Source of the DNA: an uncultured Candidatus Saccharibacteria bacterium
GTDB taxonomy: Bacteria; Patescibacteriota; Minisyncoccia; Phycocordibacterales; PALSA-1337
Length of the DNA stretch: 64,000 bases
NCBI GenBank assembly: GCA_964600255.1
Contig: CAZRIX010000002.1
Coordinates: 34,067-98,066 of the forward strand
Direction: 5' to 3'
The notes below the pieces were generated by a model. The model saw only the letters and a program-made list of their open reading frames with translations, was not told the origin of the DNA and did not search any database. The position numbers and the translations under genes were made by a program. Below are positions 984 through 18,017 of this stretch, one piece after another; the stretch's first letter is position 1, and each line of letters starts with the position of its first letter.

Positions 984-1013
984 TTGACACATAGCGTCTA
1001 GTCATGATATAAT
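984..1013 (+). promoter_or_regulatory. Near-consensus sigma70 promoter, TTGACA-N18-TATAAT
   Basis: TTGACA at 984-989 and TATAAT at 1008-1013, read directly from the sequence, about 50-80 nt upstream of the secreted-protein ORF. Confidence 0.55.
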
Positions 1014-1064
1014 ATCAAAGTAAGTGATCATTGACAACCGAATCCAGCAGGCTCCTGTTGAGTA

Positions 1065-1484: not shown

Positions 1485-1584
1485 CTTTCGAGTTACCGTG
1501 CACAGCAACGAATGCTTAAGCTGGTCAGCCCCTGTGGTTGGCCAGTTTTTATTATATAGTCTATGTATTAAACAAAGCGTTATA

Positions 1585-3516
1585 TTAAGCCGGTACAAAA
1601 TCCAAAGTCTTTTTATCTAGATCTGCCGCCACTACTTTGAACTTGATAGGGTCCCCAAGAGTAAATCTCTTACCTGTCTTTTGTCCGATAATTGAATATG
1701 TTTTCTTGTCGAATTGATAGAAATCTGTACCAATGTTTCTGATATTTATCATTCCTTCTGACTTAGTTTCCTTTTCTTCTACATAGATTCCGTACTCTGT
1801 AACTCCGGAAATAGTGCCATCAAATACACTTCCAACTTTATCTGACATGTACTCGACTTGCTTTAGTTTCTTTGATTCTCGCTCTGCACTAGCAGCATCG
1901 ATCTCGCGAGCTGTAGATTTTTCGGCAATGTCTTGGAAGGCGATTATCTCTTTGTCACCAAATGTATCGTGCATCAAATGTCTCTGTAGAATTCTTTGGA
2001 TCAAAAGATCGGGGTAACGACGAATAGGTGAAGTGAAGTGAGTGTAGTACTCAAATGCTAGTCCGAAGTGGCCAATGTTCTTTGTTGAATACACAGCCTT
2101 TTGCATTGAACGAATCAAAGCTGTACTGATGAGTGCCTCATGCTGTGTGCCTTGTATTTGGTTCAATAGAGACTTTATGTCGCGTGCTGTGACTTTGCCA
2201 TCCTTAGTCTTTAGATCATAACCTAGAGCCTTTACAAATACTGCAAGGTCAGCCATACGTTCCTGGTCTGGTAGGTCGTGGATTCGGTAAAGTGAGCCTG
2301 TATCTCTTTTTCCTTTACTTTTAATTGCGTCAAAAATGAACCTAGCAACTTCACGGTTTGCCAATAGCATATATTCCTCAACTAGCTTGTGAGTATCAAG
2401 ACGTTCTTTCTTGTAAACTCCGATTGGCTTGCCATTTTCATCTAGCTTAAACTTTATTTCTTCCTGTTCGAACTCTATAGCGCCATTGTCATACTTTTGT
2501 TTCTGGAGTATTTTTGCAATCTCATTTAATTTATTTAATTCCTTAAAATACATTCCAGACTTTACATTCAAAACTTCCTGAGCATCTTCATATGTGAATC
2601 TGTGATCAGAGTTTATGATCGTTTTGCCAAAATGTCTTTCAAGTACGTCACCTTTTTCATTTAGAACAAACCATGCAGAGAAAGTAAGCTTGTCTTCATG
2701 TGGATTAAGACTACAAACGTCGTTTGATAGGACCTCAGGAAGCATTGGTATTGTACGATCTACTAGATATATGGAACAACCGCGCTTCAAAGCCTCTTTA
2801 TCAAGTTCTGAACCTACTGCTACATAATGAGATACGTCGGCAATGTGTACTCCGATTTCGTATTTGCCGTTACCGACTTCCTTGAATGAAATAGCGTCAT
2901 CGAAGTCTTTTGCATCAAATGGATCGATAGTAAAAGTAAGTGTCTTTCGGAAATCGACACGTTTTGGAATCTCATTTGCTATGTCGGTGTTTTTGTTCTT
3001 CTCGATTGTGTCAGCTTCGGCTTCGACTGCAGGAGGGAAGTTGATCTCGAATCCTTTCTCGAGAACAATAGATTCCATCTCTACATTGTTATTACCTTTG
3101 CGTCCAAGTATGCGGATGATGTCACCCTCAGGGTTTACCTTTGGATCTGTCCATTCACGCATTTTGACGTAAACTTTGTCACCTATAGATACCTTGGTCT
3201 GATCTTCTTTTGATAGGCGAATAGAAGCATAGGCCTTTTTATCATCAGGATATGCTGTTAGAACTCCTTCGCGAGAATCAACTATACAAACAAAAGAGTC
3301 ACGAGCTCGTTTTATAACCTTTGTTACTTCAGCTGTTTGCTGCTTGAATGAATTGGTCTTACCTAGCTTAACCTCTACAATATCTCCGTTTAGAGCTGTA
3401 TTTAGATTACCTATTTCAACTATTATATCTTTCTCTGCATCCTCTGGGTTTCTTATGTATCCGATTCCTTTACGAGTAGTGATTATTGTACCTTGCATTA
3501 TTACGTCTTTTTTCAT
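1585..3516 (-). CDS. rnr: RNase R / RNase II family 3'-5' exoribonuclease (RNB domain), short form
   Basis: RNB catalytic-domain motifs (HFGLAFEYYTHFTSPIRRYPDL), an N-terminal cold-shock-like region and a C-terminal S1-like region. At 643 aa it is shorter than a typical RNase R. Confidence 0.85.
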   Translation of the reverse strand: MKKDVIMQGTIITTRKGIGYIRNPEDAEKDIIVEIGNLNTALNGDIVEVKLGKTNSFKQQTAEVTKVIKRARDSFVCIVDSREGVLTAYPDDKKAYASIRLSKEDQTKVSIGDKVYVKMREWTDPKVNPEGDIIRILGRKGNNNVEMESIVLEKGFEINFPPAVEAEADTIEKNKNTDIANEIPKRVDFRKTLTFTIDPFDAKDFDDAISFKEVGNGKYEIGVHIADVSHYVAVGSELDKEALKRGCSIYLVDRTIPMLPEVLSNDVCSLNPHEDKLTFSAWFVLNEKGDVLERHFGKTIINSDHRFTYEDAQEVLNVKSGMYFKELNKLNEIAKILQKQKYDNGAIEFEQEEIKFKLDENGKPIGVYKKERLDTHKLVEEYMLLANREVARFIFDAIKSKGKRDTGSLYRIHDLPDQERMADLAVFVKALGYDLKTKDGKVTARDIKSLLNQIQGTQHEALISTALIRSMQKAVYSTKNIGHFGLAFEYYTHFTSPIRRYPDLLIQRILQRHLMHDTFGDKEIIAFQDIAEKSTAREIDAASAERESKKLKQVEYMSDKVGSVFDGTISGVTEYGIYVEEKETKSEGMINIRNIGTDFYQFDKKTYSIIGQKTGKRFTLGDPIKFKVVAADLDKKTLDFVPA

Positions 3517-3605
3517 GTGAATACTATAGCTTAAATATGAGCTTGTATCAATGTATGTGTGGTAAGTGTTGACGTTTTTTATGCATTCTGCTAGTATATC
3601 TCCAC

Positions 3606-3953
3606 ATGTTAATGATACGTCTACAACGAGTAGGAAGAAAGCACGAACCAGTTTTTCGTCTTGTTCTTACTGATTCAAAAAATAGTACAAAGAGTGGCAA
3701 GTACATCGAGGTACTTGGTTCATATGATCCAAGACAAGAAAACAAGATTGAGCAGTTCAATCTTGCAAAGATCAAGGAACATATGTCAAAGGGTGCTAAG
3801 CTTTCAGACACAGTTCATAACTTCCTAGTTAGTAAGAAGGCAATAGATGGAAAGAAGAAGAATGTTCTTCCAAAGAAGACTCCTATAAAGAAGGATGCCC
3901 CTGAAGGTGAGGCAAAGCCAGCTCCTGCTCCAGCAGCTGCACCTGCTGCTTAG
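3606..3953 (+). CDS. rpsP: 30S ribosomal protein S16
   Basis: The MIRLQRVGRKHEPVFRLVLTD N-terminus is canonical S16. The Met at 3612 is the likelier start. It has a C-terminal low-complexity Ala/Pro/Lys tail. Confidence 0.9.
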   Translation: MLMIRLQRVGRKHEPVFRLVLTDSKNSTKSGKYIEVLGSYDPRQENKIEQFNLAKIKEHMSKGAKLSDTVHNFLVSKKAIDGKKKNVLPKKTPIKKDAPEGEAKPAPAPAAAPAA

Positions 3954-4077
3954 TTTGTTTGAATGCCGGTGTTTTTAATATATTTCTATATATTTGACAC
4001 TGTGTAAAACTCGCTTTTAATATATCCATAGTACGGTACAATTATCCAGAGACGATTATAAAATAAGAAAAACAGAA

Positions 4078-4392
4078 ATGAACAATATTGACCAGCAATT
4101 TTTAGACTACGTAGTTAAAGGACTAGTAGATAATCCAAATGATGTAAAGATTACAAGAACAGTAGATGAAATGGGAGTACTTTTGACACTAGAAGTAAGT
4201 GCGGCTGATATGGGAAAAGTTATCGGTCGTTCAGGTAACACAGCAAAAGCTATCAGAACTCTACTTCGCGTAGTGGGCATGAAGAATAATTCAAGAGTGA
4301 ACTTAAAGATTAATGAACCGGAAGGGGGGATCAAGGTTCCCGGATCAACAATGAAAACAGTTGATGAAGCAATGGCGGATTTGAATCTATAA
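4078..4392 (+). CDS. KH-domain RNA-binding protein (UPF0109/YlqC-like)
   Basis: KH motif VIGRSGNTAKAIRTLL. It sits downstream of rpsP, as this protein does in many bacteria. Confidence 0.8.
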   Translation: MNNIDQQFLDYVVKGLVDNPNDVKITRTVDEMGVLLTLEVSAADMGKVIGRSGNTAKAIRTLLRVVGMKNNSRVNLKINEPEGGIKVPGSTMKTVDEAMADLNL

Positions 4393-4413
4393 TAAAAAAT
4401 AATCTCAAAACAG

Positions 4414-4444
4414 AAGCCACTCGAAAGGGTGGTTTTTGTTTTGC
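4414..4444 (+). terminator. Intrinsic terminator after the KH gene
   Basis: aagCCACTCgaaaGGGTGGtttttgtttt: a 6-bp stem, GAAA loop and T-tract. Confidence 0.6.
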
Positions 4445-4507
4445 TCCTATATAGACCATATACTCATGATGTGGTATATTGTTGGCTGGTAAGAGAAAGG
4501 GTAATAG

Positions 4508-4882
4508 ATGAAACATGCTAAGTTAAAAGAATCGCCACTTGACGAAGTTGTGCATATACATGCCGTAGCACAGCACAATATCGAGGCGTACGAGAGAATG
4601 CCATTCAAACGCCTCGTCGGTCTGCTGCCGCATCTGCTCACAACCATCAACTGCTGGTTGCATCAGACTGATACCAAGATGCTCGGTCTGTGCAATGGGA
4701 ATAAGGCTTCGCTCAGGCGCTGGGCAAGTAGGGCCGACTTGATTCTGCGACACATCCACAGTCTTGAGCGCCTAGCGTCTCAAGATAAACCGCCTCGCCA
4801 AGAGGTAATTGCACAGTTGGCATTGATTGAAGCATATCGAGCTGGTGCCAGCTCAACCCTAGCCATCAACGGTGTCCTCTAG
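4508..4882 (+). CDS. Hypothetical protein; GC-rich; paralog of the ORF at 5020
   Basis: Open frame in a GC-rich segment. It shares the C-terminal motif I.QLALIEAYR with the next ORF. A hairpin terminator follows at about 4895-4930. Confidence 0.5.
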   Translation: MKHAKLKESPLDEVVHIHAVAQHNIEAYERMPFKRLVGLLPHLLTTINCWLHQTDTKMLGLCNGNKASLRRWASRADLILRHIHSLERLASQDKPPRQEVIAQLALIEAYRAGASSTLAINGVL

Positions 4883-5019
4883 GACACCCCTTTCACAACT
4901 TCGCGCAGCCACCTTTGTGTGGCGCGCGATTTTCTTTCAGCATTTTATAAGTTGAATTATTATTAAAAAAACGTATTATGCTTAGGAAAACTGCACTACA
5001 CAACAAAACATAGAAATAA

Positions 5020-5433
5020 ATGAGCAAAACATTCATCAGGGTTCCAGAGTATGAAGTAGCTTACATCCAAGGATTCACATCACGATGCATGGTTGCTCTG
5101 CAATCGCTAGTGGGTAGAGATCTTAGTGATCTAAGAAAGATGGTTTCCAATTATCGCAGTACCTTTATAGGACTCGGGGCGTCGATGATGCAACTACTCA
5201 AGGATGATGTTACTGAGTCTCATAACTGGACCGTCAGATTCGATCAAGTCATGGCTATGATTGATGAGGTTGAGCAACTACTCACCACTTATCCTGAAAC
5301 ACCCAATGACTGGCAAAAGGTGATAGGACGGATTGCTATCATTGAGGCGTATCGTGATAGTACGGATTGTACAATTCGAACCAACATCGCGCGCGCCTCA
5401 AATGAAGGTGAGATACAGTCTCTTTCAGCTTGA
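5020..5433 (+). CDS. Hypothetical protein; paralog of the ORF at 4508
   Basis: Shares ...VIGRIAIIEAYRDS... with the ORF at 4508. No recognisable domain. Confidence 0.5.
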   Translation: MSKTFIRVPEYEVAYIQGFTSRCMVALQSLVGRDLSDLRKMVSNYRSTFIGLGASMMQLLKDDVTESHNWTVRFDQVMAMIDEVEQLLTTYPETPNDWQKVIGRIAIIEAYRDSTDCTIRTNIARASNEGEIQSLSA

Positions 5434-5502
5434 AGGTGATCTCTCGTGACAAATTCAACATTCCGTGGTATTGTGTGATAACACCTACCACGGGATTTTT
5501 TT

Positions 5503-6186
5503 ATGAAATACCACATAATCACATTGTTTCCGCAAAGCCTCGATTCATATCTAAGTGAGTCTATTTTGAAACGCGCAATAGAGAAAAAGAAAATAGAGGT
5601 TAAGTTCTATAATCCTAGAGAATTCGCAACAACAAAGAAGAATCCAACATACTCAGACCTACGAGTTGATAACAAGCCATATGGCGGCGGTCCAGGAATG
5701 ATAATCGAGGCACTTCCAGTTATTCGTGCTATCGACAAAGCGGTTGGTAAAAAATTAAAAGATAAGAAAACTAAGTCTAAAGTTAAAATAGTCTGGTTTA
5801 GTCCATCTGGTAAACAGTTCGATACTGAGCAGGCCAAAACTTTTTCAAATAAACTCACTGACATAGTATTTATCTGTGGAAGATATGAAGGGATAGACGC
5901 TAGAGTTAAGAAAGCTTTTAAGGTTGAAGATATATCAGTAGGACCATTTGTCCTTACAGGAGGTGAATTGCCAGCTATGATCCTGATAGACACAATTTCT
6001 CGTCAGATAGAAGGGGTACTTGGAGACCATGCTTCACTAGAAGAAAATAGAATAGCCAGTCCAGATGTATATACTCGCCCAGAAGTAGTACAATATAAGG
6101 GTAAGAACTACAAAGTACCAAAGGTACTTCTGTCGGGTAACCACAAACTTATAGATGAATGGAGAAAACAACAGGGTCAGAAATAG
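5503..6186 (+). CDS. trmD: tRNA (guanine37-N1)-methyltransferase
   Basis: MKYHIITLFPQ... with RVDNKPYGGGPGMI, which matches the TrmD SPOUT-family signature. Confidence 0.9.
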   Translation: MKYHIITLFPQSLDSYLSESILKRAIEKKKIEVKFYNPREFATTKKNPTYSDLRVDNKPYGGGPGMIIEALPVIRAIDKAVGKKLKDKKTKSKVKIVWFSPSGKQFDTEQAKTFSNKLTDIVFICGRYEGIDARVKKAFKVEDISVGPFVLTGGELPAMILIDTISRQIEGVLGDHASLEENRIASPDVYTRPEVVQYKGKNYKVPKVLLSGNHKLIDEWRKQQGQK

Positions 6187-7117
6187 TCTCATAGTAGTTA
6201 CAGCTACTGTCCCATTTATTTTTATTGCTCTACTTTTTTATCTAAAACCAAATCAAATAAGCTTTGATCAATACACAGCTAACCATCACTATGTTCAGAA
6301 TGTAAAACTTTTGATAGTTGGAGACATTATGCTTGATCGTAATGTTCGAAATATTATAAATAAAAATGGATTCGAAAGTTTTTTTGCTGGTGTTAGAGAT
6401 CTCATTCAAAACGCCGACATATCGATTGCAAACTTAGAGGGTGCATTTACTACAAACCCTTCAGTTACCGCTAGTCTGGTTAGTAAGGAATTGATTTTTA
6501 CATTTGATCCTGTGCTTGCACCAAAGCTATCTGTGCTCGGATTCGATATTATGGGGCTTGCGAATAACCATACATATAACTACGGTGCCAAGGGTCTGGA
6601 ATCTACACGTAGATACGTAGGTACTGCCGGTATGCTCTACTACGGAGATCCGTTTAATAGGACTGAAATAAGTACGATAATAATAAAGAATGGAATAAGA
6701 ATAGGTGTGGTCGGTTTTCATGAGTTTTATTACACTAATTTTAATAATGTATTTTCAGAGATATCACGCTTAAGAAGTGAGGTGGATGTACTAATAGTTA
6801 CTCCACATTGGGGTGTTGAGTATCAGAAAGAACCAACAAAGAAGATGAAAGAGTGGGCTCACGCATTCATCGATAGTGGCGCCGATGCTGTTGTCGGTAC
6901 TCATACTCATATAGTAGGTGATACTGAGGTATATAAAGGTAAGAAAATATACTATTCACTAGGGAACTTTGCTTTCGATCAGTATTTCTCAAAGGCAACT
7001 AGTCAGGGATTGGCTGTCATTCTCGATATTGGAAAAGAAAGTGAAGGAATAACTATAGACTTTACAGATATACCAGTATATATAGACCGAACAGGGGTAA
7101 GAGTAGGAAGTATTTAA
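6155..7117 (+). CDS. CapA/PgsA-family metallophosphatase-fold protein (poly-gamma-glutamate capsule biosynthesis-like)
   Basis: N-terminal TM helix, then the calcineurin-like motifs LIVGDIMLDR and GLANNHTYNYG. Its 5' end overlaps trmD, and its last 50 nt fall inside the direct repeat described below. Confidence 0.75.
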   Translation: MNGENNRVRNSLIVVTATVPFIFIALLFYLKPNQISFDQYTANHHYVQNVKLLIVGDIMLDRNVRNIINKNGFESFFAGVRDLIQNADISIANLEGAFTTNPSVTASLVSKELIFTFDPVLAPKLSVLGFDIMGLANNHTYNYGAKGLESTRRYVGTAGMLYYGDPFNRTEISTIIIKNGIRIGVVGFHEFYYTNFNNVFSEISRLRSEVDVLIVTPHWGVEYQKEPTKKMKEWAHAFIDSGADAVVGTHTHIVGDTEVYKGKKIYYSLGNFAFDQYFSKATSQGLAVILDIGKESEGITIDFTDIPVYIDRTGVRVGSI

Positions 7118-7287
7118 CCCACTTGACAAATATCCTAGATATGCTAGGATATTAGAGGATCAACAGGGAAAGTCTATAAAAGCCAATAGGCTCTTTCAAG
7201 GGGATCCACAAATACAAATTCTCAAAAAGAGAAAGGAGTTAGCAACTCAGAACCCGATGTCTGCAGCCAATGCAAGCTAGGGCTAGT
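7068..7287 (+). repeat. Direct repeat, copy 1 (about 220 bp): CapA 3' end, operator/promoter palindrome and 5' part of a putative small RNA
   Basis: It is largely identical at both ends to 7343-7554, with a divergent internal hairpin (see the finding). Confidence 0.8.
7123..7153 (+). promoter_or_regulatory. TTGACA -35 box followed by a perfect 10-bp inverted repeat (AATATCCTAG-atatg-CTAGGATATT)
   Basis: Read directly from the sequence. This is an operator-like palindrome occupying the promoter spacer. Confidence 0.55.
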
Positions 7288-7335
7288 AAAATTAAGTTCA
7301 TGCAGAAATAAAACCGGCCGTAAAACGCCGGTTTC
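7155..7335 (+). ncRNA. Candidate small RNA 1 (unidentified), bounded by promoter/operator and intrinsic terminator
   Basis: No ORF. It contains internal hairpins and ends with aaaaCCGGCcgtaaaacGCCGGttt plus a T-tract (7311-7338). Confidence 0.3.
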
Positions 7336-7342
7336 TTCTTGT

Positions 7343-7554
7343 ATACCGATATATATAGACCTAACAGGGGTAAGAGTGGGTAGTATTTAACCCCCCTTGA
7401 CAAATATCCTAGATATGATAGGATATTAGAGGATCAACAGGGAAGTGTGCCGCTAGGCACCTTCTAGGGGATCCACAAATACAAATTCTCCAAAAGAGAA
7501 AGGAGTTGACCACTCGGAACCCGATGTCTGCAGCCAATGCAAGCTAGGGCTAGT
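7343..7554 (+). repeat. Direct repeat, copy 2, including a remnant of the CapA C-terminal coding sequence
   Basis: Near-identical to 7068-7287. It carries a second TTGACA plus palindrome (7397-7427) with one mismatch in the right arm. Confidence 0.8.
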
Positions 7555-7765
7555 CGACAAGTATTAAACCTACGGAATTAACGAAACCTACGTAAGAAGA
7601 AAGGCGCTAGTAACTAGTCACCCAAATGTTTACAGCAGCCAAAACTACCTTCCCAGAGGTAGTCGCCGTAAGCAAGGGCTGGTAAAAGAGTAAAAAAAAT
7701 AAAACGAGTTGGTATTAAAGAAAGAATAAAATGACCGGCGTCCTCAGAGGATCGCCGGTCTAATC
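7429..7765 (+). ncRNA. Candidate small RNA 2 (unidentified, about 330 nt): longer paralog of RNA 1 with a roughly 200-nt unique 3' extension
   Basis: Its 5' part is shared with RNA 1 but has a different internal hairpin (gtgccGCTAggcac versus agccAATaggct). It ends in a strong terminator GACCGGCGtcctcagaggatCGCCGGTC plus T-tract (7733-7768). No ORF. Confidence 0.3.
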
Positions 7766-7968
7766 TTTTATAAAAACCCAAAAACTGTGTATAAACCCAT
7801 TGACTTCTCTCTATATCTCTGCTAAGCTCACCCTAACTTCATTAGATTGTGTTACTCTTGCAAATTGAAGGATTTCGTTAGTATTCATTAGGTAGTGAGC
7901 GCACCCATTGAGTTTTATTACTAATTATTAATCCTTAGCATTTTTTGCTATTTTTGTTTACACTTTTT

Positions 7969-10900
7969 ATGCATACAACAAAAAAGTATTTCAGTCGTTT
8001 CAAGGCACCTCTGACCGAGATGCCAAACCTGGTAGAATCACAGGTTAAATCATTCGAAGTTTTAATAGAACAAGGTATAAGTGAAGTTTTGAAGGAATTT
8101 TCTCCTATCAAAGACTATGCTGGTAAGAAATTCGAACTATCATTTGTAGGTTTCGAACTTGCTAAGCCAAAGTATGACGAGCATTTTGCTAAGAACAACA
8201 AGCTTTCATATGAAGGTCAGATCAAGGTAAAGGTAAAGTTGAAGAACAAGTTGCTGGATTCAACAAAAGAGCAGGAAATGTTCCTTGCTGATTTGCCATT
8301 GATGACCGATCACGGTACTTTCATCATTAACGGTATCGAGAGAGTGATAGTTGCTCAGCTAGCACGCTCATTCGGTATTTTCTTCACAGCAAATGAAGCA
8401 AAGGGTAAAACTTTCTTCGGTGCAAAGGTTATCCCAGCTCGCGGAGTTTGGATGGAGATCGAATCTGATTCAGACGGTACTATATATGTAAGAATCGACC
8501 GCAAGAGAAAGTTCCCAATCACATCTCTTCTAAGAATCCTAGGTGCACAGACAGATGCTGATATCCTAGCGTACTTTAAGGGTAATGAATTGGCTGTAAA
8601 AGCTATAGAACTTACTCTAGCAAAGGATCATGCAAAGACAGTTGATGATGCCTATGTTGAGATTCACAAGAGATTAAGAGATGGTGATCTAGCTACAGCA
8701 GACAATGCTCGTGAATTCATCGGAAATATTTTTAATCCAGAAAGATACGACATCAATCGTGTTGGACGTTTCCGTTTCAACAAGAGATTCAATAAGTCTA
8801 TGGATGAAAAGGAATTGGAGAGACGTACAGTTAATGCTGATGACGTTGCTACAATTATTTCTCATATCGTAGAGCTAAACAATACTCCAGATGCAGTTGA
8901 AGATGATATTGATCACCTAGGATCAAGACGTGTTCGATATGTTGGAGAGCTTCTACAGCAAAAGCTTCGTGTTGGTATGACACAGATGAAGAGAAATATT
9001 CAGGACAGAATGTCTACAGTAGAGCCTGATGTTACTTTGCCTGTGAATTTCGTTTTCCCACGTCCACTACAGGCACGTATTAAGGAATTCTTCACAACAA
9101 ACCAGCTATCACAGTTCATGGGTCAGGAAAACGTTCTATCTGAGATCGAAAACCTACGTCTTCTAACAGCACTCGGTCCTGGAGGTCTTACACGCGAGAG
9201 AGCAGGATTCGAGGTTCGTGACGTTCACCCTTCTCACTACGGAAGACTATGTCCGATCCACACACCAGAAGGTCCAAACATCGGTCTTGTGCTACGTCTT
9301 TCAACATATGCACGTATCAATGATTTCGGAATGATTGAAACTCCATATGCAAAGGTAAAGAATGGAAAGGTCACAGAGGAAATCTCATATCTAAACGCTC
9401 TTGAAGAAGAGAATTTCAGAATCGCTCACGCAGCTATTCCTTATGATAAGTCAGGTAAAATCACAGCTGATGAAGTTGAGGTTCGTATCAATGGTAAACC
9501 AGGTCTTGCAAAGGCAAATGACGTGGACTATATCGACGTATCAACAAACCAAGCCTTTTCTATCGGTACATCATTGATTCCTTTCCTAAACCACGACGAT
9601 GCAAACCGTGCACTCATGGGATCTAACATGCAAAGACAGGCTACTCCTTGTATCGTAACTGAAGCACCTCTAGTTGCTACAGGAATCGAAAAGCAAGCCG
9701 TTGTAGATACAGGAAGAATCGTTCTAGCTCCAGAAGACGGAGAGATCGTATATGTAGATGCAAAGAAAGTTATTTTTGAAGGTAAGAAAGTTGGAAAGAA
9801 GGAATACAATCTAGTTCACTTCTCAAGAACAAACGGATTTACATCTTTCCACCAGCGCCCAATCGTTAATCTAGGACAAAAAGTAAAGAAGGGAGATGTT
9901 CTAGTTGATACATCGACATCAGACAATGGAGAGATCGCTCTAGGACAAAACATGCTAGTAGCCTTCATGTCATGGTCAGGAAACAACTACGAAGACGCTA
10001 TTATTCTTTCAGAAAGAGTTGTTAAGAATAGTAAGTTTACATCAATCAACATTGAAGAATTCGTAGTAAACGTTCGCGATACAAAGCTAGGACCTGAAGT
10101 TACAACTTGCGATATTCCAAACGTCAGTGAAGCAAAGCTAAAGAATCTTGCAGAAGATGGAGTAGTTCGTGTTGGAGCAGAAGTTCGTCCAGGAGATATC
10201 TTGGTTGGTAAGATTTCACCAAAGGGTGAGACTCAACTTACACCAGAAGAGAGACTGCTACGCTCAATCTTCGGAGAAAAAGCTCGTGATGTAAAAGATA
10301 CATCAAAGAGAATGGAAGGAGGAAAGAGAGGACGTGTTATCTCAGTTAAGATTTTCTCTAGAGACAGAGGAGACAAGCTAGAATCTGGAATCATCAAGAA
10401 GATTTACATTGAAGTTGCAGAACTAAGAAATGTATCTGTTGGAGACAAGCTAGCTGGTCGTCACGGAAACAAGGGAGTTATTTCAAGAATCCTACCTGAG
10501 GAAGATATGCCATACATGGAAGATGGAACACCAGTAGATGTTATTCTAACACCACTTGGAGTGCCTTCACGTATGAACCTAGGACAGATTCTAGAACTTC
10601 ACCTTGGTCTAGCTGCAAATACTCTAGGATACCAGGCTATTGTTCCACCATTTACAGGAGCTACTGATGTTGAAATCAAGGAGGAGCTTGTAAAGGCAGG
10701 ATTCGATGCTTCAGGTAAAATGAAACTACGCGATGGTAGAACAGGAGTACATTTCGATCAGCCAATCGCTGTTGGTTATATGTACATCTTGAAACTTCAC
10801 CACATGGTTGAGGATAAAATCCACATGCGTTCAATCGGACCTTACTCTCTCATTACTCAACAGCCACTTGGAGGTAAAGCTCAGGGTGGAGGACAGAGAT

Positions 10901-11145
10901 TCGGAGAAATGGAAGTCTGGGCACTTCTAGGTCACGGAGCAGCACATACACTACGAGAAATCCTAACAATCAAGTCAGATGATATCCAGGGACGTTCACA
11001 GGCATTCGATTCAATCGTTAAGGGAGAGAGAATGAAACAGCCAAACCTTCCAGCATCATTCAACGTGCTTCTAAAGTCACTACGTGGCTTGGCTCTTGAT
11101 GTAGAACTTATTAAAAAGGGTCGCACTGAGGAAGAAACAGAGTAA
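7969..11145 (+). CDS. rpoB: DNA-directed RNA polymerase subunit beta
   Basis: Canonical RpoB motifs throughout. The ORF opens at 7945, but the Met at 7969 (MHTTKKYFSRF...) is the likelier start. Confidence 0.97.
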   Translation: MHTTKKYFSRFKAPLTEMPNLVESQVKSFEVLIEQGISEVLKEFSPIKDYAGKKFELSFVGFELAKPKYDEHFAKNNKLSYEGQIKVKVKLKNKLLDSTKEQEMFLADLPLMTDHGTFIINGIERVIVAQLARSFGIFFTANEAKGKTFFGAKVIPARGVWMEIESDSDGTIYVRIDRKRKFPITSLLRILGAQTDADILAYFKGNELAVKAIELTLAKDHAKTVDDAYVEIHKRLRDGDLATADNAREFIGNIFNPERYDINRVGRFRFNKRFNKSMDEKELERRTVNADDVATIISHIVELNNTPDAVEDDIDHLGSRRVRYVGELLQQKLRVGMTQMKRNIQDRMSTVEPDVTLPVNFVFPRPLQARIKEFFTTNQLSQFMGQENVLSEIENLRLLTALGPGGLTRERAGFEVRDVHPSHYGRLCPIHTPEGPNIGLVLRLSTYARINDFGMIETPYAKVKNGKVTEEISYLNALEEENFRIAHAAIPYDKSGKITADEVEVRINGKPGLAKANDVDYIDVSTNQAFSIGTSLIPFLNHDDANRALMGSNMQRQATPCIVTEAPLVATGIEKQAVVDTGRIVLAPEDGEIVYVDAKKVIFEGKKVGKKEYNLVHFSRTNGFTSFHQRPIVNLGQKVKKGDVLVDTSTSDNGEIALGQNMLVAFMSWSGNNYEDAIILSERVVKNSKFTSINIEEFVVNVRDTKLGPEVTTCDIPNVSEAKLKNLAEDGVVRVGAEVRPGDILVGKISPKGETQLTPEERLLRSIFGEKARDVKDTSKRMEGGKRGRVISVKIFSRDRGDKLESGIIKKIYIEVAELRNVSVGDKLAGRHGNKGVISRILPEEDMPYMEDGTPVDVILTPLGVPSRMNLGQILELHLGLAANTLGYQAIVPPFTGATDVEIKEELVKAGFDASGKMKLRDGRTGVHFDQPIAVGYMYILKLHHMVEDKIHMRSIGPYSLITQQPLGGKAQGGGQRFGEMEVWALLGHGAAHTLREILTIKSDDIQGRSQAFDSIVKGERMKQPNLPASFNVLLKSLRGLALDVELIKKGRTEEETE

Positions 11146-11157
11146 TACAATAATTAT

Positions 11158-11952
11158 ATGAATAAAATTATAAAAATAATTATTGCGACAATTGCCATCC
11201 TGCTTATTGGCGGAGCTATATATGCTATAAAATATTACGATCCGAAGGCACCAAAATATAGCAAAGAAGTAAACACTTCCGTTTCTGATTGGAAGACTTA
11301 TACAAGTACTAAATTTGGATTTGAAATAAAATATCCTAATGATTGGAAGATCGATGAAAATACTGGAGGATTGGATACTTCTATTTCTATTTACAAGCCA
11401 AATAGTTCAACAGGAGGCAATGATGTTTTAGAAAACAGAATACATATAGATATCAACCCTTCATGTGATTCGACAGCTTGGACAATCAGTGGAAACGAAA
11501 TATACGATTCATTTAATATACTTAATGTGTGTTTGGATTCTAGTAAGTCATTGCAAGCAAAATTAACGGCTTTAAATGATGATTATAAAACTATAGAAGA
11601 TCTAATTATTTCTACGTTCAAACTTACCTCTCCAACAAATACTTCATCAACACAGTCATCAGAATCAATAGGTATTCAGGTAATTTCTCCTAAGTCAGGT
11701 GATAAATTGGTAATTGGTAAAACTTACGACGTAAAGTGGTCAAATTATTCTGGCCAAGAGAAGCTAAATATAGTGCTAGTTGGAAAGAAGTCTTCAACGG
11801 TAATCACTTCAACATTAAAGGCAGCTAACGTCGGTACTTATACAATGACAGTACCAGCTGTTGATACAAGTGATACTTATAAAATAGAAGTATATCCAGC
11901 AGGAGGTAGAGAGCTAGTCGGAAGAAGCGGAGAGTTCACTATTACCAATTAA
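11158..11952 (+). CDS. Membrane-anchored Ser/Thr-rich protein of unknown function, inserted between rpoB and rpoC
   Basis: N-terminal TM helix (IIKIIIATIAILLIGGAIYAI). It starts 12 nt after the rpoB stop and ends 23 nt before the rpoC start, with no terminator on either side. Confidence 0.6.
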   Translation: MNKIIKIIIATIAILLIGGAIYAIKYYDPKAPKYSKEVNTSVSDWKTYTSTKFGFEIKYPNDWKIDENTGGLDTSISIYKPNSSTGGNDVLENRIHIDINPSCDSTAWTISGNEIYDSFNILNVCLDSSKSLQAKLTALNDDYKTIEDLIISTFKLTSPTNTSSTQSSESIGIQVISPKSGDKLVIGKTYDVKWSNYSGQEKLNIVLVGKKSSTVITSTLKAANVGTYTMTVPAVDTSDTYKIEVYPAGGRELVGRSGEFTITN

Positions 11953-11975
11953 TTTCATCAAATAATATAAAATAT

Positions 11976-14900
11976 ATGGAAAAATATACAAACAAAAAAA
12001 TGAATGATCCTCAAGATTTCGATGCTGTGAAGCTCGGAGTTGCTTCTCCAGAGAAAATCCTTGAATGGTCATTTGGTGAAATCACAAAGCCCGAGACTAT
12101 CAACTACAGAACACAGCGTTCTGAGAAGAGCGGTCTATTTGATGAAAAAATCTTTGGTCCAGATCGTGACTATGAGTGTTACTGTGGTAAATACCGTGGT
12201 ATTCGTTATAAGGGAATTATCTGTGAAAAGTGTGGAGTTGAAATCACACGCTCAATAGTTCGCCGTGAGAGAATGGGTCATATCGAGCTAGCTACTCCTG
12301 TATCACATATCTGGTTCCTACGCTCTATGCCATCAAGAATTGGTCTAGTTCTTGGAATGACTACTTCTGATCTAGAAAAGGTAGTTTACTTTGCTGGATA
12401 CATCGTTACAAAGATTCACCAGGGAGAGAAAGATTCATTCCTAAAGGAATTGGATTCTGAATACAAGACAAAGGTAAAGGCAGCTCAGGACGACAAGACA
12501 AAGGAAGCTCTAAAGGAACTTGTAGTTACAGCTCGTCGTGAAATCGAAAGTCTAGAACCTGGATTTGTTATGGATGAGGTTCAGTACCACAAGTACTCAA
12601 TGAAGTATGGTTCACTGTTTGAGGCAGGAATCGGAGCTGAAGCCATTTTTGAAATATTAAAAAAGACAGATATGGTAAAGCTTCTAGAATCTCTAAATGC
12701 AGAATTCGAGAAGGCAAGTGCAATCGAGAAGGAGAAGCTTTCAAAGAGAATTTCTTTGATCAAGTCTATGATCAAGTCTGAAACACGACCTGAATGGATG
12801 TTCCTTACAAGAATTCCAGTTATTCCACCAGCACTTCGCCCTATGGTTGCTCTAGATGGAGGACGTTATGCAACATCAGATGCAAACGATCTATACCGAA
12901 GAGTTATCAACCGTAACAACCGTCTTCTAAAGCTAAAGGAAATTGACGCTCCAGATGTTATCTTGAGAAATGAAAAAAGAATTCTTCAGGAAGCTGTTGA
13001 TGCCCTAATCGACAACTCAATCCGTCATGGTGCAGCTACAGGAGCAGCAGCTATCCAGGCTCAAAAGCGCGCTCTGAAGTCACTTTCAGACAATTTGAAG
13101 AGTAAGAGAGGTCTATTCCGTCAAAACCTTCTAGGAAAGCGTGTAGACTACTCAGGACGTTCTGTAATCGTTGTTGGACCTGAACTAGCTCTTGACCAGT
13201 GTGGACTTCCAAAGCACATGGCTCTTGAACTTTTCCGTCCATTCGTTATCTCAGGACTATTGAAGAGAGAACTAGCATTCAACATTCGTGGAGCTGGTAA
13301 GCTTATCGATGAAGGTGCAAAGGAAGTTTGGGAAATTCTAGAAGAAGTTATTGAAGGTAAGTACGTTCTACTAAACCGTGCTCCTACTCTACACAGACTA
13401 GGTATCCAGGCTTTCCGCCCAACCTTGATCGAAGGTAACGCTATCCAGGTTCACCCTCTAGTATGTACAGCTTTCAACGCTGACTTCGACGGAGACCAGA
13501 TGGCCGTTCACGTTCCACTTGGAGTTGAAGCTCAACTTGAAGCAAAGGAGATCATGGCTTCAAATAAAAATATTCTAAAGCCAGGAAACGGAGATCCTAC
13601 TGTTGTAGCAAAGCTACTTGATATCGTGCTTGGATGTTTCTGGGTTACAAAGGCGGTTGATGGAGAAATAGGAGAAGGTAAAATCTTCGAAAGTCCAGAA
13701 GCAGCTCTTTCAGCTCATAACTTCGGTGCAGTGTCATATCGCTCAAAGGTAAAGGTTCTTCCAGGAGAAGGTAAGAAGTACGAACAATTTGATGGAAAGC
13801 TATTCGAGACAACAGTTGGAAGAATTCTTTTCAACAATATGCTTCCAGCAGACTTCGCATTTATCAACAAGGAAATCGATCGTAAGAAGCTATCAGGAAT
13901 TATCGATGAACTTATCATTTCACATGGTATTGCTCAGATCCCTGGTATCCTAGACGGAATCAAGGCATTCGGATTCAAGTATGCTACTCATTCAGGTACA
14001 ACTTGGGGTATCGATGACGTTGTAATTCCAGAAGGAAAGAAGGATGTTATCGCTCAAGCAAAGGTAAAGTCAGAAGAGGTTATGAATCAATTCGGTGAAG
14101 GTCTTCTAACTGATGAAGAGAGACTACGTAAGAATATTGAGATCTGGCACAAGGCCAAGAACGATGTTGAAAAGCTAATCCCTGCGTCACTAGATAAGAT
14201 GGGATCAGTTTACGACATGGTTAACTCTGGAGCCAGAGGATCATACTCACAGATTACACAGATGGCGGGTATGAAGGGTCTTATCGCATCTACATCTGGA
14301 GAGACAATCGAATTCCCAATTCTATCTTGTTCAAAGGAAGGTCTAACACCTATCGAATACTTCATTACAACTCACGGTTCAAGAAAGGGTCTAACAGACA
14401 CAGCTTTGAACACAGCTAAGGCTGGTTATCTAACAAGAAAGCTTTTCGTTGTTGCTCAGGACGTTATGATCAATGAAGATGATTGTGGTACAAAGGACTC
14501 AATTATCATCAAGAAACAAACAGCTTCAGGAATCAACATTCCACTTTCAAAGAACATCAGAGGAAGAGTCCTTGCTGAAGATATCGTAGACAAGAGTGGA
14601 GCCGTTCTTTTCAAAAAGAATCACCTACTTACAAAGCTTGAAGCACAGAAGGTTGAAGAGACAGGAATCGAATCAGTTCATGTTCGCTCACCACTTTCAT
14701 GTAAGAGTATTAAGGGAGTTTGTGCACAATGTTATGGAGTGGATCTAGGAAACAACAAGATTGTTGAACTTGGAGAAGCTGTTGGAACAGTTGCAGGACA
14801 AGCTATCGGTGAACCAGGAACACAGCTAACAATGCGTACATTCCACGCCGGAGGTACAGCGTCAGTTGGAGGAGACATCACTCAGGGTCTACCACGTGTT

Positions 14901-15659
14901 GAAGAAATTTTTGAAAAGAGAAGACCAAAGAATCCTGCCGTTATCGCAACAGTTACAGGAACAGTTACAGAAATCAAGGATCTTGGAAAAGAGAAGTCAA
15001 TCAAGATTATGCCGGAAATGGAAGATCGCGCAAAGGGCAAGAAGGCAAGTGAAGTTGAATATCTATTCAATGTAAAGCGTGTACCTTTCGTTAAGGTTGG
15101 TGACCAAGTGAACAAGGGAGACATCATTACAGACGGATCAGCAGATATTGATGAGAAATTCGAATATGCAGGTGCAGAGAAGGCAAAGAATTACGTTATC
15201 GGAGAAATCGCAAAGATTTACGAACTTCAGGGAGAAACCGTTGCTCGTAAGCACATTGAGATTATCGTGAAGCAGATGTTCTCAAGAAGAAAGGTAACTG
15301 AGACTGGAGACACAAATCTAGCAGAGGGTACTATCGTTGATGATCTACAGCTACAAGAGGAGAATGCAATGGCAAAGGCAAATGGAGGAGCACCAGCCAA
15401 GGCAGAGCCAGTAGTTATGGGTATCACCGAAGTATCACTATCACGTAAGAGTTTCCTATCAGCAGCATCATTCCAGCACACAACACGCGTACTTATCAAC
15501 AGTGCAGTTCGTGGAAGTGAGGATGATCTAGTAGGTTTGATGGAAAACGTTATCATCGGCCGCCTAATCCCAGCAGGATCAGGATTCGTTGGAAGTCCAA
15601 AGCAAAGAATGATTGCAGAGGTACAACCAAAGGAAGGGGAGGACGAAGAGAATTACTAA
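11976..15659 (+). CDS. rpoC: DNA-directed RNA polymerase subunit beta'
   Basis: Zinc-finger CxxC motifs and the NADFDGDQM catalytic loop. Full-length at 1227 aa. Confidence 0.97.
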   Translation: MEKYTNKKMNDPQDFDAVKLGVASPEKILEWSFGEITKPETINYRTQRSEKSGLFDEKIFGPDRDYECYCGKYRGIRYKGIICEKCGVEITRSIVRRERMGHIELATPVSHIWFLRSMPSRIGLVLGMTTSDLEKVVYFAGYIVTKIHQGEKDSFLKELDSEYKTKVKAAQDDKTKEALKELVVTARREIESLEPGFVMDEVQYHKYSMKYGSLFEAGIGAEAIFEILKKTDMVKLLESLNAEFEKASAIEKEKLSKRISLIKSMIKSETRPEWMFLTRIPVIPPALRPMVALDGGRYATSDANDLYRRVINRNNRLLKLKEIDAPDVILRNEKRILQEAVDALIDNSIRHGAATGAAAIQAQKRALKSLSDNLKSKRGLFRQNLLGKRVDYSGRSVIVVGPELALDQCGLPKHMALELFRPFVISGLLKRELAFNIRGAGKLIDEGAKEVWEILEEVIEGKYVLLNRAPTLHRLGIQAFRPTLIEGNAIQVHPLVCTAFNADFDGDQMAVHVPLGVEAQLEAKEIMASNKNILKPGNGDPTVVAKLLDIVLGCFWVTKAVDGEIGEGKIFESPEAALSAHNFGAVSYRSKVKVLPGEGKKYEQFDGKLFETTVGRILFNNMLPADFAFINKEIDRKKLSGIIDELIISHGIAQIPGILDGIKAFGFKYATHSGTTWGIDDVVIPEGKKDVIAQAKVKSEEVMNQFGEGLLTDEERLRKNIEIWHKAKNDVEKLIPASLDKMGSVYDMVNSGARGSYSQITQMAGMKGLIASTSGETIEFPILSCSKEGLTPIEYFITTHGSRKGLTDTALNTAKAGYLTRKLFVVAQDVMINEDDCGTKDSIIIKKQTASGINIPLSKNIRGRVLAEDIVDKSGAVLFKKNHLLTKLEAQKVEETGIESVHVRSPLSCKSIKGVCAQCYGVDLGNNKIVELGEAVGTVAGQAIGEPGTQLTMRTFHAGGTASVGGDITQGLPRVEEIFEKRRPKNPAVIATVTGTVTEIKDLGKEKSIKIMPEMEDRAKGKKASEVEYLFNVKRVPFVKVGDQVNKGDIITDGSADIDEKFEYAGAEKAKNYVIGEIAKIYELQGETVARKHIEIIVKQMFSRRKVTETGDTNLAEGTIVDDLQLQEENAMAKANGGAPAKAEPVVMGITEVSLSRKSFLSAASFQHTTRVLINSAVRGSEDDLVGLMENVIIGRLIPAGSGFVGSPKQRMIAEVQPKEGEDEENY

Positions 15660-15689
15660 TATTTTGTAGACTTAAGTAATATATAAAGC

Positions 15690-15720
15690 AAAGAGGGTCC
15701 GAAAGGGCTCTTTTTGCTTT
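15690..15720 (+). terminator. Intrinsic terminator after rpoC
   Basis: aAGAGGGTCCgaaaGGGCTCTtttttgcttt. Confidence 0.6.
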
Positions 15721-15797
15721 GTTTGACAACGATATATATTTTTTATAGTATTTGGCTGTTACTCTCGGTAACCAAAACTAGTACAGAAGGGTTAAAC

Positions 15798-16148
15798 ATG
15801 ACTATAGATCTCGGTGTTTGTGCTTGGGTGATTCTTCCAAAGAGAAGGTTCGACAAAGTATGGACTTACGTTCATCAAAATGATATGGAATCTGGATTCT
15901 GTCATCATAATATTGGACCTGAATATTCAGTAAGAAGTTATCATCACAGCGAAGAGGAGCTCTTCATTAATCTAATGTCAATAAGAGAGTGTATTGTTGA
16001 CTACGATGTCCCTGGTGGAAAAGAAGATGAGCTTGAGTATACTAATTTGTATAAAGGTTTGTTGCGTATCCTAAGGCGCCATGTCTTTAAAGCGAAAGAA
16101 GTAAATATTGATGACCTTCATATGATCTTACTTCGTGTATCTGCTTAG
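15798..16148 (+). CDS. Hypothetical protein
   Basis: The ORF opens at 15714 inside the rpoC terminator, so the start is more likely the Met at 15798 (MTIDLG...). No recognised domain. Confidence 0.4.
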   Translation: MTIDLGVCAWVILPKRRFDKVWTYVHQNDMESGFCHHNIGPEYSVRSYHHSEEELFINLMSIRECIVDYDVPGGKEDELEYTNLYKGLLRILRRHVFKAKEVNIDDLHMILLRVSA

Positions 16149-16157
16149 TTCTCGTGT

Positions 16158-16245
16158 CACGCAGCAACTACGTACACACCGACGAAACGGTGCGGTGTTC
16201 ACTCACCAACCCTGGCGATTCCTCACGGATTCGCCGGTTTTTTAA
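16158..16245 (+). repeat. Repeat R1: two-hairpin GC-rich module ending in an intrinsic terminator
   Basis: ACACCGACGAAACGGTGC...ACCAACCCTGGCGATTCCTcacGGATTCGCCGG plus T6. It is paralogous to 16712-16790. Confidence 0.7.
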
Positions 16246-16384
16246 TCTAAATGAGTGGAGGGATCTGATGACTTCATATGCTCATTACTCTTTGACATGG
16301 GTGTTGTTTAATGATATTTTGTTGTGTGTGGACTGGCGTGCAAAAGTAAGCCGTGATGGTCCAAAGTACATATAAAACCTGGTT

Positions 16385-16705
16385 ATGATAACTAGAAAGA
16401 CTGTCTGCATAGTCACTGTGATTGTGATGGTCGCTTGCGCAAGCATTGGCGTACCAGTGTTGGTTGCATACGAAGAGGACTTCGTAATCGCTGTCAATTC
16501 GTTAGAATCTCATGGCAGAGACACGACGTATGTCTGTCGCTGGACTGACGGAAAGGTTGCACTGATGCACAGTTCCACTGGTGAAGTTTGTATTCTCTCT
16601 ATTCAATGTAACTTCCAAAACATCGCGGTGGGCGAAACCTACACCGCCATGCCGGGACTTACATGTAGATGGGGACGTCTTCCTGGACAACTCAGGAAGG
16701 TATAA
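16385..16705 (+). CDS. Small Cys-rich secreted/membrane-anchored protein; GC-rich
   Basis: Signal/anchor sequence (VCIVTVIVMVACASIGVPVLVA). It sits between repeats R1 and R2. GC is elevated. Confidence 0.4.
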   Translation: MITRKTVCIVTVIVMVACASIGVPVLVAYEEDFVIAVNSLESHGRDTTYVCRWTDGKVALMHSSTGEVCILSIQCNFQNIAVGETYTAMPGLTCRWGRLPGQLRKV

Positions 16706-16711
16706 CAGTTT

Positions 16712-16790
16712 ACATAGCGTTCACACCGACGAAACGGTGCTGGTACAAAATACCAACCCTGGCGATTCCTAGCGGAGTCGCCGGTTTTTT
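16712..16790 (+). repeat. Repeat R2: second copy of the two-hairpin terminator module
   Basis: ACACCGACGAAACGGTGC...ACCAACCCTGGCGATTCCTagcGGAGTCGCCGG plus T7, with compensatory changes in the stem. Confidence 0.7.
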
Positions 16791-16796
16791 TATATA

Positions 16797-18017
16797 CTAC
16801 TTCAAATACGTAATATCTCTTGGATAAAACGTATTTGCAGTCCACTCGCCAGCTATTTCAAAACGTTTACGCCATGATAGGAAGTTGAATAGATAAATTG
16901 TTCTCCATACCCACCACATTATTCTTCCACTTACATTTATACCAAAGAAATTTCCGATAGCATACCACTGACCAATAGATATGAGGAGTCCTTTTGATTT
17001 GAAATCAAAAGATCGTGGTTTTTTATTAGACTTTGTGGCTATTATAAAAATATTATCCGCTAAGACCTTGCTTTGCTGTACCGCAACCTGTGCCAACATT
17101 GGAAAGGTTCCAGACGCATCTCCAAGTGCAAAGGTATGTGGATCATTCTGACTGTGGAGTGAAGAGTCTACCTCCATACGTCCTTTTGCTCCTACTGCTA
17201 CGCCTTTTATCTCGGATAAAGTTGGTGCTACACCTGCAACCCAAACGAGTGTATGAGCTTTTAAGCTACTGCCATCTTTAAAACTTAGAGCATATGGTTC
17301 AACCTTGGTAACTATAGCGTTTGCAACTACGTTTATCCCAAGCTCGCCCAACCTTTTAAGTGCCAATGCCCGCATTTTCACTGGGAACTGAGAGATAATA
17401 TCTGGTGTGGCAGTGACAAGTGAGATATGTATATCTGACTCAACAAAACCAGATCTACTATAGTAGGTTTTTAGCAATAAATGCATATACTCAGCGTACT
17501 CTGCTGCCAATTCAACTCCAGTAGGTCCAGCGCCTACAATAGCAACTTTCAGCATGTCTTTGTTGCCAGTTTCGACTGCTTGCTCAAATGTCTGCAATAT
17601 ATGGTTGCGTAGAACTATTGCATCGTGAAGACTCTTTAGAGTAAAGCAATGTTCCTTTGCGCCTACGGTACCAAAATAGTTCGTATCAGCTCCAGTCGCA
17701 ACAACAAGAAAGTCGTATGAATATTGAGATTTGTCTGTAATGACTCGCTTCGAATTTTGATCCACTTCAATAACTTCATCCTCAACAAAGTTTACACATG
17801 TGCCACGAAAGACCTCGCGGATAGGCTCTACAATACTTGTTGGAGATAGACCACCAGTAGCGACTTCGTGAAGTAGTGGAGTGAAAAGGAAAAAATTGGA
17901 ACGATTGATTAAAGTGATTTCTATTGTATTTTTTTCGAAAAGTTTTTCGAGACGGCGAGCAGTATAGACTCCACCGAATCCTCCACCTACTATAACTATT
18001 TTTGTTTTTTCTTTCAT
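16797..18017 (-). CDS. ndh: Type II NADH dehydrogenase / FAD-dependent pyridine nucleotide-disulfide oxidoreductase
   Basis: Two Rossmann GxGxxG motifs (IVIVGGGFGGVYTA and VAIVGAGPTGVELAAE) and a C-terminal hydrophobic segment. Confidence 0.8.
   Translation of the reverse strand: MKEKTKIVIVGGGFGGVYTARRLEKLFEKNTIEITLINRSNFFLFTPLLHEVATGGLSPTSIVEPIREVFRGTCVNFVEDEVIEVDQNSKRVITDKSQYSYDFLVVATGADTNYFGTVGAKEHCFTLKSLHDAIVLRNHILQTFEQAVETGNKDMLKVAIVGAGPTGVELAAEYAEYMHLLLKTYYSRSGFVESDIHISLVTATPDIISQFPVKMRALALKRLGELGINVVANAIVTKVEPYALSFKDGSSLKAHTLVWVAGVAPTLSEIKGVAVGAKGRMEVDSSLHSQNDPHTFALGDASGTFPMLAQVAVQQSKVLADNIFIIATKSNKKPRSFDFKSKGLLISIGQWYAIGNFFGINVSGRIMWWVWRTIYLFNFLSWRKRFEIAGEWTANTFYPRDITYLK

Follow-up and report, generated by a model that had tools for sequence, protein, structure and literature searches.

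A membrane-anchored, apparently extracytoplasmic two-module protein is encoded between rpoB and rpoC in one Patescibacterial clade

Introduction

The genes encoding the beta and beta-prime subunits of RNA polymerase, rpoB and rpoC, are among the most stable bacterial gene pairs, and their adjacency is used as a phylogenetic and synteny anchor. In E. coli and most bacteria the pair forms the distal part of the rplKAJL-rpoBC cluster. Lineage-specific departures from this near-universal adjacency exist: rpoB and rpoC are fused in Helicobacter and Wolbachia, and rpoC is split into rpoC1 and rpoC2 in cyanobacteria. Here we analyse a stretch of 64,000 nucleotides (nt) of contig CAZRIX010000002.1, from an uncultured member of the ultra-small Patescibacteria/CPR (hereafter, the window), in which an open reading frame (ORF) of 264 amino acids (aa), here named X, lies between the two genes. 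The window shares with the canonical pair the gene order, the orientation, the absence of a terminator between rpoB and rpoC and a conserved rpoB leader; unlike the canonical pair, it has a 795-nt coding gene in between, and trmD and a PGA_cap gene, not rplJ and rplL, ahead of rpoB. It is, like the fusions and the cyanobacterial split, a lineage-specific departure, but whereas in those the polymerase genes themselves are altered, in the window both are intact and an unrelated gene stands between them. Our searches of the searchable literature turned up no account of any gene lying between the two.

Variable surface loci placed between housekeeping genes, such as the pneumococcal cps locus (dexB-aliA) and the E. 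coli O-antigen cluster (galF-gnd), are exchanged by homologous recombination. X likewise appears to be a fast-diverging mosaic surface determinant between highly conserved genes, and it likewise has alleles that conflict with their flanks, some segments being closer than the flanks are. Unlike these multi-gene polysaccharide clusters, it consists of one small protein gene, whose breakpoints are internal and coincide with domain borders, and its flanks are essential RNA polymerase genes; flank-mediated exchange is only hypothesised for X. At the protein level, X resembles Patescibacterial transmembrane (TM)-anchored proteins whose modules are PsbP_2 (PF18933) and Kre9_KNH (PF10342), frequently alongside Gmad2 or TIG domains. 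It shares with them the N-terminal anchor and the motifs W-K-T-Y/G-F-E-x-K-Y-P and I-S-T-F-K-F-T, and its C-domain is 50-54% identical to modules in proteins P0006-P0015. It differs from them in its short N-domain (about 115 aa, against a profile of 184 positions) and in its location, since those examined outside the clade that carries X never lie in an rpoBC cluster. The work on Kre9/KNH found in the literature is on fungi only. What is new here is a narrowly distributed variant of a very conserved gene order; the domain families of the protein are known. We consider it likely that X is a lineage-specific passenger gene for a surface protein, fixed inside the RNA polymerase gene pair, constitutively expressed, exported, tethered and diversified by module exchange.

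An intact gene between rpoB and rpoC

The block that contains X is laid out as follows.

7781..7968, + strand: conserved leader upstream of rpoB, with a promoter-like TTGACT-17-TAAGCT at about 7801-7829, read by eye
7969..11145, + strand: rpoB, beta subunit, 1058 aa, from the ATG at 7969 (the mechanical ORF start is the TTG at 7945)
11146..11157, + strand: rpoB-X spacer, 12 nt, TACAATAATTAT, with TACAAT at 11146-11151
11158..11952, + strand: gene X, 264 aa, ATG start and TAA stop
11953..11975, + strand: X-rpoC spacer, 23 nt, AT-rich, with a weak -10-like TAATAT
11976..15659, + strand: rpoC, beta-prime subunit, 1227 aa, with Pfam Rpb1 domains 1-5
16759..16794, + strand: first strong intrinsic-terminator-like hairpin with T-run 3' of rpoB

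The first-pass annotation had described rpoB and rpoC as separated by a 264-aa ORF with gaps of 12 and 23 nt, and this description holds. Complete polymerase genes flank X on either side: Rpb2 domains 1, 2, 3, 45, 6 and 7 of Pfam are all present in rpoB, with E-values down to 1.9e-125, and the Rpb1 set of rpoC is also full. The start of rpoB was placed at the ATG because relatives are annotated at 1058 aa, which matches it. From rpoB to rpoC the interval measures 830 nt, of which 795 nt are the coding sequence of X, the sole ORF inside; rpoC does not follow rpoB immediately, as it does in the canonical pair. The leader is 94.7% identical in two relatives that carry the block (L002 and L003) and 75% identical in a third (L001).

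A first alternative is that X is a spurious ORF or a decaying pseudogene. Its GC content and its GC content at third codon positions (GC3) are the lowest in the window, NCBIfam has no family that matches it, and the sources that name a relative of X label it 'hypothetical protein', all of which would suit such an explanation. However, six lineages retain the 264-codon frame without disruption (the ORFs of the relatives carrying X measure 259-324 aa), and we estimate the chance of an open frame of this length in DNA of 33% GC at about 1e-9. One Pfam domain scores above threshold and the fold of the C-domain is predicted confidently. Moreover, the ratio of nonsynonymous to synonymous substitution rates (dN/dS) is 0.13-0.48 within allele classes, well under 1. 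These ratios indicate that X is functional, with purifying selection acting inside allele classes in each of the six lineages that have the gene. A spurious ORF is thus excluded as far as sequence can show, and we give this alternative practically no weight.

Distribution of the rpoB-X-rpoC order

Close homologues of X were found on six further contigs: L001, L002 (with L003 and L004), L005, L006 (with L007) and L008. Wherever the contig reaches, rpoB, X and rpoC occur in this order, with gaps of 12-14 nt and 23 nt, and the flanks of X share 84-98% nt identity with the window. The X-rpoC spacer is identical in length, and nearly so in sequence, in all of these relatives, including L002, which has a different C-domain. 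A profile scan of metagenome contigs with the X alignment added one weak C-domain relative (L089), which is uninformative on synteny.

These loci were compared with an outgroup set of 80 loci (L009-L088), retrieved with rpoC and limited to one genome per species, in about 78 of which both genes could be placed. In the nearest relatives without X (62-85% aa identity over the rpoB C-terminus), rpoB and rpoC are 0-96 nt apart, and in all other outgroup loci the gap ranges from about -25 to 266 nt. Separation of the two genes was therefore seen in 0 of the ~78 other loci, in agreement with the earlier statement that it is uncommon. Identity of the rpoC protein to species representatives labelled Zambryskiibacteria, Paceibacteria or Parcubacteria is at most 69-71%. 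Since the outgroups all have adjacent genes and the junctions are identical in the carriers, the comparison indicates a single insertion of X in the ancestor of one genus-level clade. The synteny comparison proposed by the first-pass annotation thus gave a divided answer: the arrangement is kept and X is intact among relatives, but only within this clade, the next relatives having adjacent genes.

A departure of another type was noticed within the outgroup set. In L017 (positions 172-7017 of DATJQA010000074.1, a metagenome-assembled genome of Candidatus Paceibacterota), rpoB and rpoC are apparently fused into a single ORF of 2281 aa.

Architecture of the X protein

From its sequence, X appears to be an intact gene for a membrane-anchored, apparently extracytoplasmic protein made of two modules, with the following parts.

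11176..11229, + strand: TM segment, residues 7-24, uniformly hydrophobic; signal anchor or signal peptide
11290..11628, + strand: PsbP-like N-domain, residues 45-157, assigned from motifs, a sub-threshold Pfam match and homologues
11629..11676, + strand: Ser/Thr linker, residues 158-173, also the recombination breakpoint zone
11677..11949, + strand: C-domain of Kre9/KNH type, a predicted immunoglobulin (Ig)-like beta-sandwich, residues 174-264, Pfam PF10342

An N-terminal TM anchor followed by a Ser/Thr-rich extracytoplasmic domain had been proposed at the outset, and the details bear this out. The protein begins with MNKIIK, followed by 18 hydrophobic residues, and the AlphaFold2 (AF2) model places a helix over residues 3-26, which leaves at most about 6 residues on the cytoplasmic side. 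Serine and threonine make up 22% of X, the highest share among 57 ORFs of the window, and the densest stretch is in the linker at residues 158-171, SPTNTSSTQSSESI. X combines the short positive N-region, the hydrophobic helix and the extracellular-type domains of a Sec-exported, N-anchored protein.

A structure prediction had been suggested as a check. In the AF2 model of whole X (mean predicted local distance difference test score, pLDDT, 73), the TM helix is followed by a beta-rich domain with a helix at its end, then by a disordered linker (pLDDT <50 at residues 160-170) and a confident beta-sandwich. The latter, the C-domain, is modelled as all-beta with a pLDDT of 81-92 over most of its length, and it scores 27.5 bits with PF10342, whose gathering cut-off is 24.6; residues 177-262 align to positions 1-94 of the 94 of the profile. 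Foldseek with the whole model against the PDB returned generic local matches of the fibronectin type III (FN3)/Ig-like type only, none at E<=0.001, the best being 3pdg (template-modelling score 0.56 on the target, probability 1.0).

The N-domain starts with W-K-T-Y...G-F-E-I-K-Y-P..W and ends with I-I-S-T-F-K-L-T; it contains an invariant pair of cysteines (Cys103/Cys125) and a hypervariable patch at about residues 87-142. Its assignment draws on its homologues, in which PsbP_2 was matched in 29/35 (best E 1.1e-14) and PsbP (PF01789) in 21/35, and on the profile of the N-domain family, whose best matches in the PDB are the CyanoP structures 2lnj and 2xb3 (E 0.008-0.011). A PDB search with the sequence profile of the full-length X alignment gave nothing relevant.

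Both modules are widespread. An exhaustive search of 1.84 billion representative proteins gave 2,791 matches at E<=1e-3, and among the fetched matches a single protein carries up to 55 copies of the C-module and up to 6 of the N-module. The nearer matches are TM-anchored proteins that join the C-module with Gmad2-type domains, and the full architecture of X, PsbP-like plus Kre9_KNH, was found in just two other 50%-identity clusters among the same representatives. Judged by these searches, both domains are very common Patescibacterial extracellular modules, and the protein itself seems ordinary.

Mosaic alleles of X

The window and L005, which belong to the same species, differ in rpoB at 1 nonsynonymous and 67 synonymous codons over 1059, and in X at 18 nonsynonymous and 11 synonymous codons over 264, mostly within residues 87-142. 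Across the lineages, each part of X falls into its own allele classes.

TM segment and stalk: {window, L005, L002, L006}; L001; L008
N-domain: {window, L005, L002, L001}; {L006, L008}
C-domain: {window, L005, L006, L008 and, more distantly, L001}; L002

In L002 a second PsbP-like domain replaces the Ig-like C-domain. Identity profiles break sharply at the borders of the modules, as at about 11638, in the linker, for L002, and regain the level of the flanks within a few codons of the X stop. L008 is 95% identical to the window in rpoB, yet has a foreign TM segment and N-domain. By rpoB, no pair is more distant than L006 and L008 (88.8%), which nevertheless have a common N-domain allele. The C-domain of L006 is closer to that of the window (dS 0.13) than the adjoining rpoB and rpoC are (dS 0.42-0.65; approximate binomial P ~2e-4). 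Because the groupings of the modules conflict with each other and with the relationships of the flanks, the three modules of X must have passed between lineages by recombination, and the diversity of X comes largely from such exchange, not from decay. Positive selection as the sole cause of the divergence was rejected: dN/dS is low within classes, dS is also raised in the variable patch, and recombination tracts fit better.

The same evidence bears on a second alternative, that X is functionally tied to RNA polymerase, for instance as a membrane tether or a transcription regulator, and that this explains its position in the operon. All that speaks for such a link is where X sits and the fact that six lineages keep it there. 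With about 6 residues or fewer before the TM helix, X has no cytoplasmic domain to contact the polymerase; its two domains are generic extracellular repeat modules that recur in unrelated surface proteins by the thousand; close lineages have exchanged entire domains, unlike what is expected of a conserved partner interface; and close relatives live without X. An RNA polymerase-associated function was rejected on the ground that X lacks a cytoplasmic domain, and we hold the link to be very improbable. The first-pass annotation had called the co-expression of a surface protein with the polymerase core unusual; the position of X is indeed unusual, but no functional link is implied by it.

Base composition and the question of import

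With a GC content of 0.333 and a GC3 of 0.238, X ranks last on both measures among the window's 57 ORFs of 100 aa or more, the window as a whole averaging 39.8% GC; its GC at first codon positions is 0.36. The initial statement that its composition matches that of the host genes was thus mistaken, while the accompanying statement was right: X is GC-poor, and is not a GC-rich import. Other surface-type genes come near to it in GC3 (~0.25), such as the pilin-like gene at 33571-34443 (0.254).

X could instead be a recently acquired foreign or mobile cassette sitting in a hotspot, and not stably inherited. Its extreme composition is in keeping with such an origin, as are the mosaic alleles, with a module similarity that is sometimes above that of the flanks, and the strain-variable regions 5' of rpoB and 3' of rpoC. 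However, six lineages share near-identical junctions even where the nt identity of their flanks is down to 84%, and this points to one old insertion; the low GC comes partly from the amino-acid content and resembles that of surface genes such as 33571-34443. The window holds no integrase, transposase or flanking repeat at the locus and no paralogue or repeat of X, X is the sole ORF in the interval, and the lone tRNA is 21 kb away. A recent import is therefore improbable in our judgement. A foreign origin of the original X gene, which is a different matter, is kept possible by the low GC and the mosaicism.

GC-rich material does occur elsewhere in the window, as short ORFs of 106-161 aa with a GC content of 0.47-0.54 and a GC3 of up to 0.76 (1065-1484, 4508-4882, 16385-16705, 19656-20051, 24022-24507, 33031-33486, 48100-48570 and 54324-54674). 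They have no Pfam match above threshold and several have signal-peptide-like starts; they may represent imported GC-rich genes, or else GC-rich non-coding elements that were taken for ORFs.

Expression signals around X

Neither of the gaps flanking X contains a terminator-like or promoter-like site according to a consensus scan. As the first-pass annotation had stated, no terminator stands on either side of the gene: from rpoB onwards no strong one occurs on the + strand until 16759, where a hairpin (16759-16784) of 11 pairs, 7 of them G-C, is followed by TTTTTTT. Read-through across rpoB, X and rpoC is thus what one would expect by default.

Among the long genes of the window, none (0/39) has a Shine-Dalgarno core 4-13 nt before its start codon, and 19/40 genes have a -10-like hexamer ending at positions -7 to -10 relative to the start, against a background of ~0.02 per position. 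These hexamers are TATAAT-like, often with a TG extension; they are present even in gaps of 7-17 nt, and some lie inside the 3' end of the preceding gene. The pattern can be seen, for example, at the genes starting at 21300, 26665, 37021, 45799 and 49696. The absence of Shine-Dalgarno sites together with -10 boxes at -7 to -10 suggests that leaderless mRNAs with gene-proximal promoters are widespread in this Patescibacterium. In X, the TACAAT ends exactly at -7, the modal position (9/40 genes); in rpoC, a weaker TAATAT ends at -8, 8 nt before the ATG.

These signals raise the alternative that X is an independent transcription unit, started from a leaderless promoter at the TACAAT, that rpoC is re-initiated from its own weak -10 box, and that the two are not co-expressed with rpoB. 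The pattern across the window, including the boxes in very short gaps, and the well-placed hexamers of X and rpoC argue for it. Against it, read-through is still expected in the absence of a terminator before 16759; the -10-like boxes of X and rpoC are degenerate or absent in L006, L001, L008 and L002 despite the conserved order and spacing; and X has neither a -35 element nor a TG extension. We regard full independence as possible, though on the unlikely side. For X, two routes of transcription are probable: read-through and, at least within the window's sub-lineage, initiation at its own start. The earlier opinion that co-transcription is likely therefore stands as regards the missing terminator, but to conclude co-transcription from short gaps and a missing promoter is a weak argument here, given a TACAAT at -7 in a genome without Shine-Dalgarno sites. 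No terminator isolates the gene, though a -10-like box does precede it.

A model for the origin and role of X

Taken together, the data are best explained by the passenger surface-protein gene proposed above. The common ancestor of a single genus-level clade of Paceibacteria-type Patescibacteria would have acquired a small surface-protein gene in its short spacer between rpoB and rpoC, and its descendants would have retained the gene there. It would be transcribed by read-through of the RNA polymerase transcript; in the window and its closest relatives, the -10 box of X, at a spacing suited to a leaderless mRNA, probably drives transcription as well. The product would be exported by Sec, kept tethered through its N-terminal helix, and would display two binding-type domains on the cell surface, where contact with phage, host or partner may exert diversifying pressure. 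X would have no mechanistic role in transcription, its position providing constitutive expression, and the conserved flanks may ease the exchange of its alleles.

Several observations weigh against this reading or limit it. Firstly, as regards the protein, PsbP_2 matches X below its gathering score (21.6 bits against a cut-off of 27) and over positions 3-84 of 184 only, and when the N-domain was modelled alone (pLDDT 75, predicted template-modelling score 0.71), the fold search did not confirm the PsbP-like assignment. Positive charges lie on both sides of the TM segment, and topology and export are read from sequence. Secondly, as regards selection, dN/dS is >1 in no domain comparison, the sole value above 1 (1.12) being that of the 44-codon TM segment and stalk against L006; a surface role under diversifying pressure follows from the pattern of variation only. 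Thirdly, as regards expression, the TACAAT before X recurs unchanged in L005 and L002, but L006 has a degenerate version of it and L001 and L008 have none, and by our estimate the chance of matching such a box in AT-rich DNA is ~0.1; co-transcription, the promoter of X itself and the leaderless model are all deduced from DNA signals. Lastly, the sampled clade that carries X consists of six lineages only, and a sampling gap lies between 92% and 74% aa identity of the rpoC N-terminus; the age and breadth of the insertion are therefore poorly bounded.

A stronger version, which we find doubtful, is that the position itself has been selected. In that case rpoB and rpoC would act as long homology arms that swap a hypervariable cassette between diverged symbiotic species, and the interval would be a dedicated site for a variable antigen or adhesin with constitutive expression. 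Were it true that the flanks promote allele exchange, the locus would illustrate on a small scale how the cell surface can stay variable in a reduced genome.

On the more modest reading of X as a passenger gene, a long-standing unrelated insert shows that the rpoB-rpoC junction tolerates insertion without a terminator or visible operon repair. The rpoB-X-rpoC order would be a clean synapomorphy for this Patescibacterial genus, and it is relevant to amplification or concatenation across rpoB-rpoC. As a mosaic, fast-evolving surface protein, X is also a candidate for governing how an uncultured episymbiont lineage interacts with host or phage. The locus has no apparent bearing on the mechanism of transcription, and its wider significance is modest.

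Regions flanking the block

Both flanks of the rpoB-X-rpoC block are strain-variable, because the segment 7118-7780 upstream and the stretch from rpoC to 16759 downstream differ between relatives. Ahead of rpoB (3606-7117) are rpsP, a KH-domain gene, trmD and the PGA_cap gene, which is of the capsule-synthesis type and begins 32 nt before trmD ends; the usual rplK-rplA-rplJ-rplL genes are not there. The same order upstream of rpoB is also seen in L001-L003.

Between the PGA_cap gene and rpoB (7069-7780) lies a tandem duplication of about 270 nt, whose copies are 90-93% identical (7069-7120/7342-7393, 7113-7170/7387-7444 and 7182-7287/7449-7554). Each duplicate contains the last ~50 nt of the PGA_cap gene, a strong TTGACA-16(TG)-TAGGAT promoter overlapping a 25-nt palindrome, AATATCCTAGATATGMTAGGATATT, and a conserved segment of ~110 nt without an ORF; terminator-like hairpins stand by the duplication at 7311-7334 and ~7733-7770. 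At the gathering threshold, Rfam detected no known RNA in or around the locus, and in 7000-8000 nothing at E<=1 beyond GibS, the best hit but not a match (E 0.06). The duplication looks like a pair of duplicated small-RNA genes. The segment 7118-7780 is missing from L001, L002 and L003, which retain only the 7781-7968 leader.

Downstream of rpoC, the stretch up to the terminator (15660-16800) holds only unannotatable ORFs (15714-16148 and 16385-16705) and is entirely unlike the corresponding region of L002 (12683-14095), though L002 is a 94%-identical relative. In L002, the region 3' of rpoC contains a 62-aa ORF with a weak match to RNA_pol_A_CTD.

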